Of a stretch of DNA of 64,000 nucleotides, positions 6,107 to 34,656 are shown piece after piece. Below the pieces are notes generated by a model. The model searched no databases and was not told the origin of the DNA. It saw only the letters and a list, made by a program, of their open reading frames with translations. The stretch's first letter is position 1; the number at the start of each line of letters is the position of its first letter. Location of the stretch: NCBI GenBank assembly GCA_050329555.1, contig JBHJOQ010000077.1, forward strand, positions 3,144 to 67,143, given 5' to 3'. The stretch is from Acidimicrobiia bacterium. Lineage in GTDB: Bacteria; Actinomycetota; Acidimicrobiia; Spongiisociales; ZC4RG35. Position numbers and translations under genes: made by a program.

Positions 6107-7293
6107 GCGGTTTCGGGCTGGGGGTCTATGACCACGGTCAGCTCGGCGATGCGCCGGCCCTGCATCCGGACCACAGTGAACACGCAGTCGCCAACCCGGA
6201 ACGTCTCGCCTTCTTCGGGGACACGTTCCGCCACGGCGAGTACAAGCCCGCCGACAGTGTCGGACTCCGCTTCCGGTAACTCCACCTCGAGCTCGGCCGC
6301 CAGGTCCTCGACCGGCAGGCGGGCATCGACAGCCCACCGGCCGTCGCCGGAGGCAACGAGCAGCAGCTCGTCTTCATCGGTCTCATCAGTGATCTCGCCC
6401 ACCAGCTCCTCGAGCAGGTCTTCGATTGTGATCAGCCCGGTGATATCGCCGTACTCGTCGACGACGATCATTTGATGCACCTTCCCGACCTGCATCTCGG
6501 CGAGCAAAGTCGCAGCCAGCTTGGTCTCGGGAACGAAATCGACAGGTCGCATCACTGCGGCCACCGATTCTGGACGCTTGTTCCCGACGAACATCGGAAG
6601 CAGGTCCTTCACGATCACCAGCCCAACAACATCGGAGTCGGCGGTGACGGGAATTCGCGAGTATCCCTCGTCGGTGGCGAGAGCGACGAGCTCCTCGATG
6701 GTCCCGGTCACCGGCACGGTCACCATATCGGGGCGGGGGGTCATCACCTCCCTGACCATGGTCTCGGAGAACTGGAGGACCGACAGGATCAGCTCGCGCT
6801 CTTGTTCATCGGAGATCTCCTCCTCGACGTCTTCGAGTTCGTCGTTCTGGTCGACATCGGCTTCGAAGATGAGATCATTGGCCCATCCCCCGAGCCTGAC
6901 CGCTACCCCGAGGACGGGAGCGGACCGGTATGCCATCCGGTGGGATGCGACGCGGCCGATCCCGCGTGGAATGAGGTCGCCCACTAGGAACACAATCAGG
7001 CCAACCACGAGACCGAGCCAGACCGCCGCAATCGCAGACTCGTTGGCGGCCACAGCCGCGACCCCGAGCGTGGCGCTGACCACGAGCAGTGCCGAGCCCA
7101 CGACGCCGACGGCTGGTGCAATCACCTCGCGATCGTCGAGCATCTCGGCAACGGCCTCCGCACCCTTCACTTCCTCAGAAGCGTCCCGGAGAGCATCGGC
7201 TCGTGGAACTCTGCTGATTGCAGTACCGGCCGCGCGCAGCCATGCAGCAAACAACAAGATCAGCCCGGCGATGACAAGGGTCAGCGTGGTCAT
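6103..7293 (-). CDS. Hemolysin/CorC-family membrane protein (CNNM/DUF21 TM domain + CBS pair + CorC_HlyC)
   Basis: 396 aa. It has N-terminal TM helices, a CBS-pair region (VREVMTPRPDMVTV...VVDEYGDITGLITIEDLLEELVGEI) and a C-terminal transporter-associated domain. Confidence 0.85.
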   Translation of the reverse strand: MTTLTLVIAGLILLFAAWLRAAGTAISRVPRADALRDASEEVKGAEAVAEMLDDREVIAPAVGVVGSALLVVSATLGVAAVAANESAIAAVWLGLVVGLIVFLVGDLIPRGIGRVASHRMAYRSAPVLGVAVRLGGWANDLIFEADVDQNDELEDVEEEISDEQERELILSVLQFSETMVREVMTPRPDMVTVPVTGTIEELVALATDEGYSRIPVTADSDVVGLVIVKDLLPMFVGNKRPESVAAVMRPVDFVPETKLAATLLAEMQVGKVHQMIVVDEYGDITGLITIEDLLEELVGEITDETDEDELLLVASGDGRWAVDARLPVEDLAAELEVELPEAESDTVGGLVLAVAERVPEEGETFRVGDCVFTVVRMQGRRIAELTVVIDPQPETA

Positions 7294-7754
7294 CTCCGCA
7301 CCTTGCCGATCTTGGCGAGGATCTCTCTCTCCCGCTGTTCCATCGCCTCTGCCTCATCGTCATTCTGATGGTCGTAGCCGAGCAAGTGGAGCAGGCCGTG
7401 AACCACCATCAATGAGATCTCGTCTTCGAAGCTCACGCCGTACTCCTCCGCCTGCCTCGAGATGTACTCAGGGGCGACGATGACATCGCCGAGAAGCAGG
7501 GGGGGATCATTGAAGTCGCGTTCGGGCACCACTCCGGGCTCGAGATCTTCGACTGGAAACGCGAGCACGTCGGTGGGCCCGGTCCGGTCGAGGAAACGCT
7601 CGTTGTAAGAGCCCATCTCTGAGTCACTGACCAGAAGCAGGGTCACCTCGGAGCTTTCCGGATATCCCTCTCCTTCCACCAACAGTTCGGCAAGCGCCCG
7701 AATCGCCGGAAGGTCGACGGGCCGGGATTGCTCATCGGCAACAAAAATGCTCAC
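7290..7754 (-). CDS. ybeY: rRNA maturation endoribonuclease YbeY
   Basis: 154 aa with the diagnostic metal motif HGLLHLLGYDH. Confidence 0.92.
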   Translation of the reverse strand: MSIFVADEQSRPVDLPAIRALAELLVEGEGYPESSEVTLLLVSDSEMGSYNERFLDRTGPTDVLAFPVEDLEPGVVPERDFNDPPLLLGDVIVAPEYISRQAEEYGVSFEDEISLMVVHGLLHLLGYDHQNDDEAEAMEQREREILAKIGKVRR

Positions 7755-7793
7755 GGGTGAGCACCGGTATATCGACTGAGGGGGTCGTCCACC

Positions 7794-10310
7794 TCAGGAG
7801 CCGGGGAAATTGGGGTAGGCAATGCGCTGATGGTAGTGGCCGATCAGGGACTCGAGGAAAGCAGCCCTGATCTTGGTGATGTCGGAGAGGGTGAGCGGCG
7901 ATTCTCCGAGTTGCCCGTCGTCCATCTTCTCGTTGACAACACGATCGACAACCTTCTCAATGGCTTGAGGCGAGGGCTCCTCGGTCTGGAAAACGGCCCG
8001 GCAGGCAGCTTCGAGGCTGTCGGCCAGCATGACGATTGCCGACTCGGCGGTCCGGGGCTTGTGACCGACATGGCGGAAGTCTGCCGGGTCGACTTCGCCA
8101 TTCTCCTGGGACTTGGCCTTCTCGTAGAAATACCTCATGATCCCGTCGCCGTGATGGCTGACGATGCCCATGGTCACGTCGGAGGGGATCTTGTACTGGC
8201 GGGCGAGGGCGACCCCGTCGCTGACGTGACGCCTGATGATCTCAGCCGACTCCTTGGGGCTGAGCATGTCATGGGGGTTGGCCCCGCCGAACTGGTTCTC
8301 GATGAAATAGGTGGGGTTCTCGGTCTTGCCGAGGTCGTGGTAGTAGGCCATGGCCCGTGCCAGAAGGGCGTTGGCGTTGATGGCTCGCGCCGCAGCGTGG
8401 GACAACGTCCCCACCATGAGGGAGTGGTTGAACGAGCCGAACGCTTTCTCCTGAAGCAACTGCAGGGCCTCGTGATTGCGGTCCGTGAGGTCGAGAAGGC
8501 TGAGTGTGGTCGTGATGTCGAAGGCAGACTCGAAGAACTGAAGGGCGGCCAGCCCGACCAGAGAAGCGACGATCGACACTCCGAACGCCCACAGCGAGGA
8601 GATCCCCACAACTTCGAGTACCGAGTCGTTGGGGCCGGCGTGGAAGTACCACGAAGTTGCCGCCGCCGCCACCGCAGCGGTCAAGGACGAAAAGATCACA
8701 GCATTCCGGAAAGCACCACGGCTGCTGACCGAAGATACAAACGGAATCGGCGCCATCGTGGCCAGCACCGCATAGACCGATACCCCGATGTCCTGGCTTC
8801 CGACCGCGGCGAGGACTCCAATCGTGAGCGCCATGAGCACTGCAATCCGGGAGTCGAAGAGGACTGCAGTGACGAACCCGAAAGCTACCGCAGGGAAGAT
8901 GTACCAGCTCATCCCCGGCTCGGCTACCACCGTCCCCCGCACCGCGCCGGCAGCGAGCACGATGAGTATCCCCAATAGCGCCACCATCCGGGGGCGGGCC
9001 CAGAACTCGAGACGGAACGTGGCGAGGTAGAGGCCGAGGATGCCGATCAGCACCGCGACCACGGCAAGCAAGCCGCCATCCTGTTCGACCTCCACGACAT
9101 TGGCACCGGTCTCGTTGATGGCGTCGATGTGAAGCTGGGTCAAGGGCTGGTTCTGGTCGACGATGAGCTGGCCGGCTGTGTATTCCTCCATCACCTCTTC
9201 AACAGCGCTGGCGCGAAGATCCTGTTCCTGGGTGGTGCGTGTCTGGTTGACGTCCTCGTTGGCCTGGATCAAGGTCGCCACGATCTCCCCCGCTGCCTGC
9301 CCCGCCGCCTCATCACGGCCGGTGTCATCGAAGAAGACCGCCGGGGGGCTGTTCCGGGCCCGGGCCCTCACATCCTGCAAACCACTGCTGCGAACGCCGA
9401 GGCCAAATTCCTGGAGGATCCGATCGGTCACCTGCCTCTCGATAACCGTCAGCCGCAGCGGCTGGGTCAGGGCGGATCGGATCACATCGTCGGCAGCCAT
9501 CGTGGCAAGGGTGAGCGAAGCGTCGCTAGCAAGGGCATGTGCTTCGCTGATCTCGGCGGCGACCTCTTCCACAGGCCTCAGGTTGGGGGCAAACCCGACC
9601 GACCGCGCCACGCATTCTTCATCATCGCCGGAACAGGAGACCAGCTGCGACGGACCTTCCTCGCTCAGCACTGCAAAACCGACCGGGACGTCGCTGTCCT
9701 CGACGTCGACCTTGACCACATAGTCACCTGGCGCGGTTTCGTACGCCCAAACACCGCCCGGGCCGGTCATTAGGGTCTCCTCGCCCCCGCCTGACGTCAC
9801 GGTGACGGTGATCCTCTCCAGTCCCCGGTCCGGCCGCGCCCCCTCAGCCTCGGGGGCAAAGCTGCCGTCGCCATCGACGTCGACATACACGACCCCGCTC
9901 AACACCACGGGAGCGGGTGGAACGGTCGTTGTGGTAGATGTGTCTTCTGGATCGGTTGTCGTCGTGGTGCCTTCAGGAAGCGTTGGGTCGGTGGTTTCCG
10001 GTGGCGGGTCGGCAATAACCGAGGCAGCGACATCGTCGAACAACGCGGTTACGTCGTTTTGCACGTCCTGCTCCGCTACGGGATTGTCTTCCCATATGGG
10101 CTCGACATTGTCGCGCGCCTGCTGGCGGAGTTGCTCGGTGGCGACGACGTTGACAACGTCAGCCGCCCGCTGTGCCTCATACGGTCGTTCGGCAAGATCG
10201 CCGACGTTGAGTCGAGAGGAGGCGCCACCACCTCCGACCGAGAGCACACCCCACACCGCAAAAACTGTGGCGAGGAATGTGGCCCAGCGCACAACGGTGG
10301 ACCGTTTCAT
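7794..10310 (-). CDS. 7TM-HD membrane phosphohydrolase (PgpH/YqfF family) with an enlarged extracellular N-terminal region
   Basis: 838 aa. It has a signal/TM segment and a long extracytoplasmic region with Thr-rich linkers and an SdrD-B/Cna-B-like module (VLSGVVYVDVDGDGSFAPEAEG...ITVTVTSGGGEETLMTGPGGVWAYETAPGDYVVKV). This is followed by 7 TM helices and a C-terminal HD domain (HSLMVG...YHDLGK...HHGDG). Confidence 0.8.
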   Translation of the reverse strand: MKRSTVVRWATFLATVFAVWGVLSVGGGGASSRLNVGDLAERPYEAQRAADVVNVVATEQLRQQARDNVEPIWEDNPVAEQDVQNDVTALFDDVAASVIADPPPETTDPTLPEGTTTTTDPEDTSTTTTVPPAPVVLSGVVYVDVDGDGSFAPEAEGARPDRGLERITVTVTSGGGEETLMTGPGGVWAYETAPGDYVVKVDVEDSDVPVGFAVLSEEGPSQLVSCSGDDEECVARSVGFAPNLRPVEEVAAEISEAHALASDASLTLATMAADDVIRSALTQPLRLTVIERQVTDRILQEFGLGVRSSGLQDVRARARNSPPAVFFDDTGRDEAAGQAAGEIVATLIQANEDVNQTRTTQEQDLRASAVEEVMEEYTAGQLIVDQNQPLTQLHIDAINETGANVVEVEQDGGLLAVVAVLIGILGLYLATFRLEFWARPRMVALLGILIVLAAGAVRGTVVAEPGMSWYIFPAVAFGFVTAVLFDSRIAVLMALTIGVLAAVGSQDIGVSVYAVLATMAPIPFVSSVSSRGAFRNAVIFSSLTAAVAAAATSWYFHAGPNDSVLEVVGISSLWAFGVSIVASLVGLAALQFFESAFDITTTLSLLDLTDRNHEALQLLQEKAFGSFNHSLMVGTLSHAAARAINANALLARAMAYYHDLGKTENPTYFIENQFGGANPHDMLSPKESAEIIRRHVSDGVALARQYKIPSDVTMGIVSHHGDGIMRYFYEKAKSQENGEVDPADFRHVGHKPRTAESAIVMLADSLEAACRAVFQTEEPSPQAIEKVVDRVVNEKMDDGQLGESPLTLSDITKIRAAFLESLIGHYHQRIAYPNFPGS

Positions 10311-11272
10311 TTCTTCGTCTCGTACCTGGCGTACGCTTCGACGATGGACGCGACGATTCGATGGCGCACCACATCGCGCGACGTCAGCTCGACAAATGCC
10401 ACCCCGGGAATGTCGCCCAGGATCTGGCGAACCACACCGAGACCGGAGTGCCGATCGGTGGGCAGATCGGTCTGAGTGATGTCACCAGTGATGATCATCT
10501 TGGAATTGAAGCCGAGCCGGGTCAGGAACATCTTCATTTGCTCCGGAGTTGTGTTCTGGGCTTCATCGAGGATCACACATGCGTCGTTGAGAGTCCTTCC
10601 TCGCATATAAGCGAGCGGAGCTATCTCAATAGTTCCCTTGTCGATGAGATCGAGGGTCTCCTCAGGGCCAAGCATGTCCCAGAGGGCGTCGTAGAGGGGG
10701 CGGAGGTAGGGGTCCACTTTTGCGGTCAGATCCCCCGGGAGAAAGCCCAGTCTTTCGCCGGCTTCCACGGCGGGGCGGGTGAGGATGATGCGGCGAACCG
10801 ACCCGTTGACCAGGGCATCAACCGCCGCTGCCATGGCCAGATAGGTCTTTCCGGTACCGGCCGGCCCGATACCGAAGGTGAGGGTGTTCTCCCTGATTGC
10901 GGCCATGTAGCCCTGCTGGCCGTGGGTCTTCGGCCTGATCATCCGGCCCCTGCCCACCGGAATGCCGTCACTGAGGACGTCGGAGGGAGAAGGCACGTCC
11001 TCACCTACCATCTTGACCACCTCGGCCACCCCTCCGCTGTCCAGGGCCTGACCCTCCTGGACGAGGATGAGCAGTTCGTCGAGGACCGTCCTGGCGCGTT
11101 CGACCTCATCCCGGGCGCCGCTGACGGCGATTTCGTCCCCGCGCGCGACGAATCGCACCCCCGGGAAGTGTTTTTCGATCTGGCGGAGGTGTCGGTCGGC
11201 GTCTCCGAGTAGGTCGAGCATCAAATGCTGACTCGGGACGCGTAAACGTGTTTCGGTGTGTTCAGGAAGCAC
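10307..11272 (-). CDS. phoH: PhoH-like ATPase
   Basis: 321 aa. Walker A GPAGTGKTYLAMA and a PhoH signature region (ILTRPAVEAGERLGFLPGDL...DPYLRPLYDAL). Confidence 0.9.
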   Translation of the reverse strand: MLPEHTETRLRVPSQHLMLDLLGDADRHLRQIEKHFPGVRFVARGDEIAVSGARDEVERARTVLDELLILVQEGQALDSGGVAEVVKMVGEDVPSPSDVLSDGIPVGRGRMIRPKTHGQQGYMAAIRENTLTFGIGPAGTGKTYLAMAAAVDALVNGSVRRIILTRPAVEAGERLGFLPGDLTAKVDPYLRPLYDALWDMLGPEETLDLIDKGTIEIAPLAYMRGRTLNDACVILDEAQNTTPEQMKMFLTRLGFNSKMIITGDITQTDLPTDRHSGLGVVRQILGDIPGVAFVELTSRDVVRHRIVASIVEAYARYETKK

Positions 11273-32509: not shown

Positions 32510-33355
32510 ATGGAACGGATCGGAGTGATCGGCGGCGGGCTCATGGGCTCGGGTATCGCCGAAGTGTGTGCCAGGGCGGGGAGCGACGTCGTCGTCCATG
32601 AGATCAACGCCGAGGCTGCAGAGGCGGCCCTGGGGCGCATCGAGAAATCGCTGGCTCGAGCCATTGAGCGGGAGAAGCTGGACGAGGCCGGGAGGGATGA
32701 CCTCTTGTCCCGTATCGATATCTCCACCGACATCTCCGATCAGGCCGACCGCCAGCTGGTCATCGAGGCGGCGACCGAGAACGAGAGCTTGAAGAAGGAT
32801 ATCTTTGCCGAGCTGGACAGGGTCACCGGCCCGGATGCGATTCTCGCATCGAACACATCCTCGATCCCGATCACAAGGCTGGCGGCAGCCACCGACAGGC
32901 CCGGGAAGGTAGTTGGCCTTCACTTCTTCAACCCGGTACCGGTGATGGCCCTGGTCGAGCTGGTGACCACCGTGCTCACCGACGACGACGCCGCCGAGGC
33001 CGTTGCCTCCTACGCCGAATCGCTGGGCAAGACCGTGATCAGGGCGAAAGATCGCGCCGGGTTCATCGTGAACATGCTGCTGATCCCCTACATGATCGGT
33101 GCCGTGCGCATGTTTGAGGCAGGGTTCGCCTCCGCCGAGGACATCGACGCCGGGATGAAGCTGGGAGCCAACCACCCGATGGGGCCTTTAGAGCTCGCCG
33201 ACTTCGTCGGCCTGGACACCACCAAATACGTCGCCGATGTGTTGTTCGAAGAGTTCAAGGACCCAGCATACGCCTCTCCCCCTCTGCTCACCCGGATGGT
33301 CGAGGCAGGCCTCCACGGCCGCAAGTCAGGCCGCGGCTTCTACGACTACAGGTGA
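32510..33355 (+). CDS. hbd: 3-hydroxybutyryl-CoA / 3-hydroxyacyl-CoA dehydrogenase (NAD-binding)
   Basis: 281 aa. IGVIGGGLMGSGIAEV Rossmann motif, ASNTSS and GFIVNMLL motifs, and a C-terminal 3HCDH domain. Confidence 0.9.
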   Translation: MERIGVIGGGLMGSGIAEVCARAGSDVVVHEINAEAAEAALGRIEKSLARAIEREKLDEAGRDDLLSRIDISTDISDQADRQLVIEAATENESLKKDIFAELDRVTGPDAILASNTSSIPITRLAAATDRPGKVVGLHFFNPVPVMALVELVTTVLTDDDAAEAVASYAESLGKTVIRAKDRAGFIVNMLLIPYMIGAVRMFEAGFASAEDIDAGMKLGANHPMGPLELADFVGLDTTKYVADVLFEEFKDPAYASPPLLTRMVEAGLHGRKSGRGFYDYR

Positions 33356-33873
33356 ACTAGAACCTGGTCGAGTTCGGCGTGGTCGCCGGCGAATTCCTCG
33401 AAATCCGAGTAGCGGAGCTCGTCGCCGGGTCCGATCACCAAGGTGGCTCCAAGCTGGAAAGGGCGTCTGCCCGCGTTGTGCTGCCGGTTCCCTTTGGCAA
33501 GTGCTCTCGTCCCGACCAAAAGTTGCCGGGGGCTGACCAGCGAAAGTTTGCCGAGAGTGCCGGTGCCTACCAACTCCGCCGCTGATCCGTCTTCGTCGAG
33601 GAGCACCTCAAAGGGAACCGACTCATCCTCGATGAACGCTTGTGCATAGCGGCGCCCGCCGGTACCTATCGCGGTGACGTCGGCCCCGGCTGCCAGAATC
33701 TCCTGATATCTGTCACGGACCTGACCGGCCCGTTCGCGGCAGGTCAGTCAGCCGAAGTGACGGAGGAAAAGGATGACCCTGGGATCTGTCGCCCAACGGT
33801 CGCCAAGCCGATGCTCGGTACCGTCGGGGTCGACCAGATGCATTTCACCGAGGGCAGAGACGTCAAATACCAT
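33346..33873 (-). CDS. Prx-like2 / AhpC-TSA_2 family thiol-disulfide oxidoreductase with an in-frame TGA at the first redox Cys position (candidate selenoprotein, otherwise a pseudogene)
   Basis: My own translation is MVFDVSALGEMHLVDPDGTEHRLGDRWATDPRVILFLRHFG-[TGA, 33748-33750]-LTCRERAGQVRDRYQEILAAGADVTAIGTGG...LVIGPGDELRYSDFEEFAGDH. The frame is continuous on both sides of the TGA. The track lists only the part after an internal GTG (33346..33606). Confidence 0.6.
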
Positions 33874-33891: not shown

Positions 33892-34656
33892 TCACGACGC
33901 CAACGTCCCGGCGAATACCTGCCATGCCAGCGCCGACTTGGCGACCAGGCTGAGCAGGATGTATGTGGACTCACCGTAGACATACTCGGCCCATTTCCCG
34001 ACCCGGCGATACTGCAGGACCATCACCACCGCAAAGACGTTGAAGAAGACGAACAGGGAGAAGAAGATCCCGTAGACGAAACCCGGAGGGCTGACGTCGA
34101 AACCAGGGCTGATGAGGTAGATCGCAATCGCCACCCAGGGGACCGCTCCGGCGATGACACCGAACCAGTAGGGCAGCCAGCCGGCAACGCGCCCCGGGGA
34201 CTCGTACTTCTCCTGGAGGAGTCCGAACAAGATCATCGAGGCGTTGACGCCTGCCAAGGCGATCAGAGCGGCAATGTCGGCGATACCCACCAACATTGCG
34301 ATCAGAACCACCATCACCGAAGACGACAGCGAATACTCGATCCATCGGGCGTAGTTGCGCTTCTCCCCGAGATTGGCCAGATACCACCGGTATATCCCGG
34401 GCGATGCAATCAGGAAGTGAGCCCCCGCCGAGAGGAAGAGAAACACAGCGACACCCCAGGCGAGACTCAAATCGAAAAGCGGCTCGACCGCGGTCGGCTC
34501 CAGACCGGGGGGCCCGGTCATATAGGTCGCGATCACAGGAAGGGTGAAATCGGTTGCGAGCCACAGGACTGCGGCTCCCTGTGCTGCATGGAGAAACCCC
34601 ATGACGATGTTGTACAGGCGGAGGCGGGAGGAAACGGACGCGGCTAAATCGCTCAT
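33892..34656 (-). CDS. Heliorhodopsin (7-TM retinal protein with inverted topology)
   Basis: 254 aa. It has the signature blocks of characterised heliorhodopsins: ...GFLHAAQGAAVL..., SAGAHFL, ARWIEYSLSSSVMVVLIAMLVGIADIAALIALAGVNASMILFGLLQEKY, VPWVAIAIYLISPG, and YILLSLVAKSALAWQVFAGTL, which carries the Schiff-base Lys in VAKSALAWQ. The counterion Glu lies in WIEYS. Confidence 0.9.
   Translation of the reverse strand: MSDLAASVSSRLRLYNIVMGFLHAAQGAAVLWLATDFTLPVIATYMTGPPGLEPTAVEPLFDLSLAWGVAVFLFLSAGAHFLIASPGIYRWYLANLGEKRNYARWIEYSLSSSVMVVLIAMLVGIADIAALIALAGVNASMILFGLLQEKYESPGRVAGWLPYWFGVIAGAVPWVAIAIYLISPGFDVSPPGFVYGIFFSLFVFFNVFAVVMVLQYRRVGKWAEYVYGESTYILLSLVAKSALAWQVFAGTLAS

Follow-up and report, generated by a model that had tools for sequence, protein, structure and literature searches.

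Selenoproteins that combine a thioredoxin (Trx) or peroxiredoxin (Prx) fold with a UxxC redox motif, where U is selenocysteine (Sec), have been catalogued since 2005, and include Prx-like 1, 2 and 3, a Redoxin family and a cd02970 family with a UxxS motif (PMC2398784 Table 2; PMC13188914 Table 1). An exchange of Cys and Sec at redox CxxC sites is an established signature of selenoproteins (PMC13188914, PMC2398784). The published model of the bacterial selenocysteine insertion sequence (bSECIS) has a loop of 3-9 nt with a G in the first two loop positions, an upper stem of 4-16 bp, a spacing of 16-37 nt from the UGA and a minimum free energy (MFE) of -7.5 kcal/mol or lower (PMC13188914 Fig 2A). 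Here we describe a gene of this general kind in a 64-kb stretch of DNA from an Acidimicrobiia bacterium (contig JBHJOQ010000077.1, positions 3,144 to 67,143; hereafter the window, with positions counted from its first letter). The gene lies on the minus strand at 33346..33873 and encodes a Trx-fold protein of the Prx-like2 (AhpC/TSA_2) type, and an in-frame TGA takes the place of the first Cys codon of its CxxC motif. Judging from comparative sequence analysis, it is highly probable that this is a genuine selenoprotein gene, whose UGA is decoded as Sec42 by the standard bacterial pathway with a conserved downstream hairpin as the SECIS element.

A conserved in-frame TGA at a catalytic position

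Between 33873 and 33346 on the minus strand, the frame is open except for a single TGA and reads MVFDVSALGEMHLVDPDGTEHRLGDRWATDPRVILFLRHFG-TGA-LTCRERAGQVRDRY...QVLVHL-TAG. In translation it runs from an ATG at 33873-33871 to a TAG at 33348-33346, spans 175 codons including that of Sec42, and carries the motif U42-L-T-C45; its N-terminal part (MVFDV...FLRHFG) leads directly into the TGA at 33748..33750. The locus was first noticed in an inspection of the letters and their translations (the sequence-only reading), which described a continuous minus-strand frame around this TGA, as the translation indeed has it, with 41 codons before the TGA and 134 after; the first count stands, and the second should be 133 sense codons, as the stop had been included. 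The mechanical list of open reading frames (ORFs) holds just two fragments of the gene, a 41-amino-acid (aa) N-terminal piece and the 86-aa C-terminal piece that the same reading had picked out.

With Cys substituted at the TGA for domain scoring, the best Pfam match of the protein is PF13911 (AhpC-TSA_2; 46.5 bits, gathering cutoff 27, residues 54-156), and PF00578 (AhpC-TSA; 39.7 bits, cutoff 26) and PF08534 (Redoxin; 33.8 bits, cutoff 26.6) are also matched. The nearest NCBIfam model, NF040769 (SelL-related redox protein), gives 83.3 bits against a curated cutoff of 120 (E = 1.5e-23, residues 10-173), and by the NCBI criterion the protein is not a member. The initial placement in the Prx-like2 family is therefore sound, with PF13911 above its cutoff, whereas the further label of a SelU/PRXL2 lineage was loose, since the nearest curated model is SelL-related and is not reached.

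For the comparison of orthologues, DNA was taken at 31 loci from a genome collection in which each species is represented once, and nearly all of these loci belong to metagenome-assembled genomes (MAGs) of Acidimicrobiia; 29 of the loci span the TGA site and, together with the window, make up the 30 sequences analysed below. The same codon is TGA in 29/29 orthologues, a check that the sequence-only reading had proposed, and hence in 30/30 sequences, and the N-terminus before it is collinear, conserved and in frame from the same start. These orthologues diverge by up to ~40% in protein sequence and stem from several independent studies. The TGA column falls on the N-terminal nucleophile position of CxxC: in a 15-sequence alignment it is Cys in 14/14 full-length homologues, within FLRHFG-C-xx-C-R, and it aligns with the CxxC of human PRXL2B (9us9), which ranks first by sequence among PDB entries (E = 0.0016, ~22% identity) and whose RRFG-C-VV-C-R lies opposite RHFG-U-LT-C-R. 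The identification of the TGA with the first Cys of the motif is thereby confirmed. The second residue of UxxC, Cys45 (TGC at 33739..33741, minus strand), is the presumed resolving thiol and is invariant in Sec- and Cys-containing homologues, with TGC and TGT both used in its column.

Coding constraint is present on both sides of the TGA. Across the 36 gap-free codons before it in the orthologue alignment, the proportions of nonsynonymous (pN) and synonymous (pS) differences are 0.27 and 0.70, with a ratio of nonsynonymous to synonymous divergence (dN/dS) of ~0.2, and synonymous divergence is near-saturated; the codons after the downstream hairpin have pN 0.15, pS 0.69 and dN/dS ~0.1. These values show purifying selection on the sequence upstream of the TGA, which bears directly on two trivial explanations that the sequence-only reading had itself put forward. 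One is a nonsense pseudogene, in which a Cys codon mutated to TGA in a dead or dying gene. A single change from TGT or TGC would suffice, and a close homologue discussed below (P0001, locus L191) does have TGT at this position; nevertheless, the TGA stands in 29/29 diverged orthologues, without other lesions, with an upstream dN/dS of ~0.2 and with a frozen hairpin downstream, so that a pseudogene is extremely improbable. Nor could one contaminating sequence have given rise to this pattern, since the orthologues are distinct at numerous sites and were obtained in separate studies. The other is a sequencing or assembly error over a true TGC or TGT, for which the chance is again negligible, as the identical TGA occurs in 29 independent assemblies, including long-read, chromosome-level MAGs such as OZ244166.1. 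Conservation of the TGA and purifying selection on both sides of it thus refute both.

Reassignment of TGA throughout the genome was considered as well and is ruled out, because TGA is the most frequent stop codon in the window: among the 47 predicted genes with a stop inside the window, 32 end in TGA, including the heliorhodopsin gene just upstream. A scan of the window for further TGA-split ORFs, based on GC content at third codon positions (GC3), was non-specific, because antisense frames likewise have high GC3.

A conserved hairpin that fits the bacterial SECIS model

A hairpin of the form A-CGGGCC-[GGUCA]-GGUCCG-U is encoded downstream of the TGA at 33715..33733 on the minus strand, with its loop at 33726-33722, and is the presumed SelB-binding element. 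We refer to it as hairpin B, to distinguish it from an overlapping structure proposed earlier, hairpin A. The distance from the UGA to the start of its loop is 21 nt, and it is the consensus structure that RNAalifold returns for the 30 sequences, with 96% of pair-cells paired and two covarying pairs; columns 30-48 hold G-C 13 times, A-U 7 times and G-U 3 times, and columns 33-45 hold G-C 28 times and A-U and G-U once each. In none of 500 shuffles did the covariation score, the fraction of paired cells or the count of compensated cells come up to the observed value, and 27-29 of 500 reached the counts of covarying pairs and of extra pair types, in a statistic that shared ancestry can inflate.

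The codons that encode hairpin B are also conserved beyond what the peptide requires. At codons +6 to +10 after the TGA (R-A-G-Q-V), the orthologues use CGG in 27/29, GCC, GGT and CAG in 29/29 each, and GTC in 27/29, so synonymous entropy is ~0 for GCC, GGT and CAG and low for CGG and GTC, while codon entropy is 1.1-2.0 bits at every other Ala, Gly or Val position among the 97 aligned codons. Likewise, pS is 0.22 in the hairpin codons versus 0.70 in the flanks. This frozen synonymous block coincides exactly with hairpin B. Folded alone, the hairpin has an MFE of -11.3 kcal/mol (z = -4.0), and its pattern is found once in the 64-kb window. Its 5-nt loop, 6-7 bp stem, GG at the start of the loop, 21-nt spacing and energy of -11.3 kcal/mol agree with the bSECIS model on every point. 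By these features, hairpin B is a conserved element under selection at the RNA level that fits the bacterial SECIS model.

A positive control is provided by a bona fide selenoprotein gene, that of the formate dehydrogenase alpha subunit FdhA, on an actinomycete contig (L131 6207-9500, minus strand; NF041513, 1991 bits; the same contig as L202) that also bears selA, selB and the gene for tRNA-Sec. This gene has an in-frame TGA (IENQARI-U-HSATVPGLG) followed 18 nt on by GUCCCC-[GGUCU]-GGGGAC, an element with the same architecture as hairpin B. Rfam gave no match in the whole window at gathering thresholds, and a search of 33650-33800 at E <= 10 returned a single, meaningless snoRNA match. A lower SECIS helix, formed between the codons that immediately follow the UGA and codons +12 to +13 (columns 20-25/49-54), was tried and rejected: only 67% of its cells pair, with essentially no covariation.

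The sequence-only reading had proposed a different element, hairpin A (33721..33747, minus strand), which folds as CUGACC-U-GCC-(GCGAACG)-GGC-C-GGUCAG and is mutually exclusive with hairpin B, the segment GGUCAG being shared by the two. It is very improbable that the gene encodes a selenoprotein with hairpin A as its functional SECIS. Hairpin A does exist, and it is the MFE fold of its stretch in the window (-14.7 kcal/mol, z = -3.3, 0/200 shuffles as good) and the MFE fold in three orthologous loci (L014, L015 and L016); it begins its 7-nt loop with a single G and is more stable than hairpin B in 14/30 sequences, with similar mean energies of -13.1 kcal/mol for A and -12.7 kcal/mol for B. Its conservation among orthologues, which the sequence-only reading had named as a check, is not borne out: across the 30 sequences no compensatory change is seen, and 18 pair-cells are broken, in each case by a one-sided change in a 5' arm that drifts freely at synonymous sites, and only the 3' arm, the part shared with hairpin B, is unchanged. 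Against the bSECIS model, its loop size, first G and energy of -14.7 kcal/mol pass, whereas its 3-bp upper stem and the 10 nt between UGA and loop lie outside the permitted ranges. Moreover, the frozen codons +6 to +10 match hairpin B exactly. Thus, what stood of the earlier proposal is a hairpin after the UGA that folds better than chance in the window; its role as SECIS passes to hairpin B. As a reasonable reconciliation, hairpin A may form on free mRNA in some lineages and would be melted by a ribosome whose A site is occupied by the UGA, which would free the shared 3' arm for hairpin B to form; in E. coli, the lower SECIS helix has been described as being unwound in the same way (PMC13188914).

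Selenocysteine machinery in orthologue-bearing genomes

Among 30 orthologous loci, only L027 (MAG MFD09779.bin.1.214) had any sel or tRNA-Sec genes near the orthologue. There, selA (6845-8191; TIGR00474, 416 bits, cutoff 268), selB (8179-9942; TIGR00475, 343 bits, cutoff 242) and the TGA-containing Prx-like gene (from ~10001) form a cluster at 6845-10513 on the plus strand, in which selA and selB directly precede the Prx-like gene. Because the three genes are tightly clustered on one strand, this arrangement suggests that the Prx-like protein is a principal client of the Sec machinery in that genome. The genome contigs were searched for selA both with the L027 SelA as query and with a profile, the latter adding one MAG, and selA was found on other contigs of at least six further orthologue-bearing MAGs (assembly prefixes CAWGTX, JBFHRE, JAHEJY, JAHEDI, DATDCF and, at locus L118, CAWKAG), which brings the total to at least 7 of 29. 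Presence of selB was confirmed in all six MAGs checked for it, namely that of L027 and the first five of this list, and selB adjoins selA in 5/5 checked loci outside L027. In addition, a tRNA-Sec gene lies directly downstream of selB at L045 (13064-13156), at L120 (13071-13163) and at 12 other Acidimicrobiia or actinomycete loci; these genes have a strongly conserved D-arm (CCTGGTGGGCT) and T-arm (GGCGGGTTCGATTCCCGTCC), which could act as a lineage-specific probe for Sec-using Acidimicrobiia. Taken with the TGA in 29/29 orthologues, the Cys in 14/14 full-length homologues and the upstream dN/dS of ~0.2, the occurrence of selA and selB in orthologue-bearing genomes upholds the central proposal of the sequence-only reading, namely a UxxC selenoprotein with Sec in place of the first Cys of CxxC.

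Several observations weigh on the other side. No selA, selB, selD or tRNA-Sec gene lies within the 64-kb window. The closest relatives of the window locus (L001-L003) are without selA or selB among the matches listed, which says nothing either way, and a tRNA-Sec pattern derived from Acidimicrobiia (CCTGGTGGGCT-N7-CTTCAA) gave none from the 29 MAGs among the matches listed, which is uninformative. In the 29 orthologue-bearing MAGs selD was not located, and it was seen next to selA in Ilumatobacteraceae loci only. Regarding the RNA element, hairpin B is mostly invariant, with covariation confined to two pairs and its shuffle statistic open to inflation by common descent, and in the window itself hairpin A is the more stable structure (-16.3 vs -12.4 kcal/mol).

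Cysteine forms and database annotation

A protein search returned 297 homologues, the best 120 of which were classified. Fourteen of these are full length (175-180 aa, with HFG-C-xx-C), and the remaining 106 are N-terminally cut gene calls of 108-144 aa, 47 of them with the start placed precisely on the codon that follows the TGA column ('MTCRERAGQVR...'). NCBI, JGI and ENA records, including those from PGAP, carry the protein as a truncated 'peroxiredoxin-like family protein'. That automatic callers would split or drop the gene had been foreseen, and the 106 truncated entries among the best 120 bear this out; read against the conserved frame upstream of the TGA, they appear to be systematic mis-annotation of a selenoprotein. 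On this reading, ~100 database entries, including PGAP records of 133-136 aa, would be truncations of one selenoprotein family that lack the catalytic residue, and a curated Sec-aware model would mend them across Acidimicrobiia MAGs.

The same 47 entries, called from a CTG or GTG right after the TGA, could be taken to favour translation of two products by re-initiation after a stop, and a related possibility is that the UGA is read through with Trp, Cys or Arg rather than Sec. Both are very unlikely. In four orthologues the TGA is followed by CTC or CTT, neither of which is a start codon, and according to the structural model described below a re-initiated product would be missing both strand beta-1 of the Trx fold and its catalytic residue. 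As for readthrough without Sec, the conserved hairpin fits a SelB-type SECIS model, selA and selB adjoin the gene in L027, and Cys/Sec exchange at a redox CxxC marks selenoproteins (PMC13188914, PMC2398784).

Homologues with Cys at the TGA column are informative about the hairpin. The closest full-length homologue, P0001 (L191 2-544, plus strand, on a 1.2-kb JGI metagenome contig), is 69% identical to the window protein and has TGT (Cys) for TGA, and it keeps an intact hairpin, CGGGCC-GGTCA-GGTCCG. Because hairpin B is intact despite the TGT, P0001 suggests a recent reversion from Sec to Cys, in which the hairpin may now be unneeded. A distant Cys form, P0055 (L192), has neither the hairpin (+2.5 kcal/mol when forced) nor the RAGQV peptide.

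Copies of the gene also occur in bins labelled as other phyla, namely L029 on a Gemmatimonadota MAG contig and P0042 in a Pirellulaceae MAG. The L029 fragment is identical in translation to the matching part of L010, from the same study, and both copies are probably binning contamination rather than horizontal transfer.

Fold, active site and proposed mechanism

The AlphaFold model of P0001, the 69%-identical Cys form used as a proxy for the window protein, has a Trx/Prx fold with a mean predicted local distance difference test (pLDDT) score of 81.5. Its Cys/Sec residue lies between a strand (32-37) and a helix (43-54), with HFGC at the junction. Foldseek searches of the PDB with this model give human PRXL2B (9usa/9us9) as the best structural match (E = 6e-9, template modelling score 0.70-0.86), then DsbE, BcpB, ResA and PrxQ. 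By this model, the UxxC of the window protein would follow strand beta-1 and lie at the N-terminal end of helix alpha-1.

In canonical peroxiredoxins the peroxidatic Cys lies in a PxxxT/SxxC signature. A further point to be set against our interpretation is that this signature is absent here: the sequence reads I-L-F-L-R-H-F-G-U, with His for Thr/Ser and no Pro at -7. Peroxidase activity is thus not assured, and the PF00578 score of 39.7 bits reflects the shared fold. Because the signature is absent, the name PRXL2-like thiol/selenol oxidoreductase would suit the enzyme better than peroxiredoxin in the strict sense.

A plausible course of events can be outlined by analogy with the standard pathway. 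SelA would convert Ser-tRNA(Sec) to Sec-tRNA(Sec), and SelB-GTP carrying this tRNA would bind the CGGGCC-GGUCA-GGUCCG hairpin within the coding sequence (CDS) and deliver Sec once the UGA at 33748-33750 enters the A site. Keeping the hairpin would fix both the peptide RAGQV and its exact codons. In the finished protein, Sec42 at the N-terminus of helix alpha-1 is the presumed nucleophile and would attack an oxidised substrate, whether a disulfide, a sulfenate or a peroxide; formation of a selenenylsulfide with Cys45 would follow, and a thioredoxin-type reductant would recycle the enzyme. Here we infer Sec insertion, SelB binding to hairpin B, the substrate and the reductant from the sequence.

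Genomic neighbourhood

On the same strand, a heliorhodopsin gene (33892-34656; PF18761, 332 bits) lies upstream of the selenoprotein gene, with a gap of 18 nt. Because the two genes share a strand, are separated by 18 nt and have no terminator-like or promoter-like site between them, they are probably co-transcribed. This adjacency is kept only in L001-L003, the closest relatives; the two genes are ~1.5 kb apart in L012, and the remaining orthologous loci lack the arrangement. Gene context and transcription have tied heliorhodopsins to redox genes, among them those for peroxiredoxin and catalase (Bulzu et al. 2021, PMC8612252), and the adjacency in the window fits this pattern, without being a feature of the whole family. 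On the other side, a convergent 3-hydroxyacyl-CoA dehydrogenase gene (32510-33355, plus strand; PF02737 and PF00725) overlaps the 3' end of the selenoprotein gene by 10 nt (33346-33355). Among the orthologous loci, a convergent downstream 3-hydroxyacyl-CoA dehydrogenase gene is found in eight and heliorhodopsin in four, and no conserved functional partner gene was seen across them.

A broader interpretation may be offered as speculation. Because selA, selB and the Prx-like gene cluster in L027 and a heliorhodopsin gene lies 18 nt upstream in the window lineage, one could imagine that the Prx-like2 UxxC protein is a clade-defining selenoprotein of Acidimicrobiia that dwell at surfaces, are probably aerobic and are exposed to light, that it is possibly their main reason for keeping the Sec machinery, and that it forms a light-linked module with heliorhodopsin. 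We regard this as rather unlikely. If true, it would describe a module against photo-oxidative stress and give heliorhodopsin a concrete redox partner, and it would go against the view that selenoproteins are seldom kept by aerobic bacteria (PMC13188914).

Apart from this interpretation, the locus adds a well-supported candidate selenoprotein and a lineage-specific SECIS consensus (GC stem, GGUCA loop, 21 nt) to an uncultured, environmentally abundant class, and the hairpin B pattern could be used to find further selenoproteins in Acidimicrobiia. It also appears to be a clear case in which an RNA structure constrains a peptide, RAGQV, and its codons alike.

Comparison with known selenoproteins

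The UxxC selenoproteins of the Prx-like thiol:disulfide oxidoreductase and Redoxin families, as catalogued in prokaryotes by Zhang and Gladyshev (PMC2398784 Table 2; PMC13188914 Table 1), are alike to the window protein in their Trx/Prx fold, UxxC motif, bSECIS within the CDS and common Cys homologues, and the window protein matches their models, PF00578 and PF08534, above cutoff. It differs from them in that its best model, PF13911, lies outside the domain models for catalogued Sec families (PMC13188914 table), and in that its clade is largely confined to Acidimicrobiia MAGs. Among other relatives, the cd02970 family, compared by description, likewise has Sec at the first position of the redox motif; in contrast to the invariant UxxC of the window family, it has UxxS without a resolving Cys and comes from a deltaproteobacterial symbiont. 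The cd02970 model is that of the PRX_like2 superfamily.

Similarity extends to eukaryotic proteins, with clear differences in each case. SelL-related proteins of NF040769 have a Prx-like fold and a redox motif at the same site as the window protein, whereas eukaryotic SelL itself has two Sec residues (UxxU) and a SECIS in the 3' untranslated region, unlike the window gene. Human PRXL2B uses Cys rather than Sec, is eukaryotic and acts on a lipid substrate as a prostamide/prostaglandin F synthase; nothing indicates that this substrate is shared.

At the RNA level, the E. coli fdhF SECIS has GGUC in its loop. Hairpin B resembles this fdhF-type element in its GC-rich stem, its small GG-U loop and its location in the CDS ~20 nt after the UGA, and differs from it and from the consensus bSECIS in having no bulged U in the stem and no conserved lower helix. 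In summary, the gene most likely encodes a new, or at least uncurated, UxxC selenoprotein whose best Pfam model is missing from the table of catalogued Sec families, and the mechanism by which it would obtain and use its Sec is not new.

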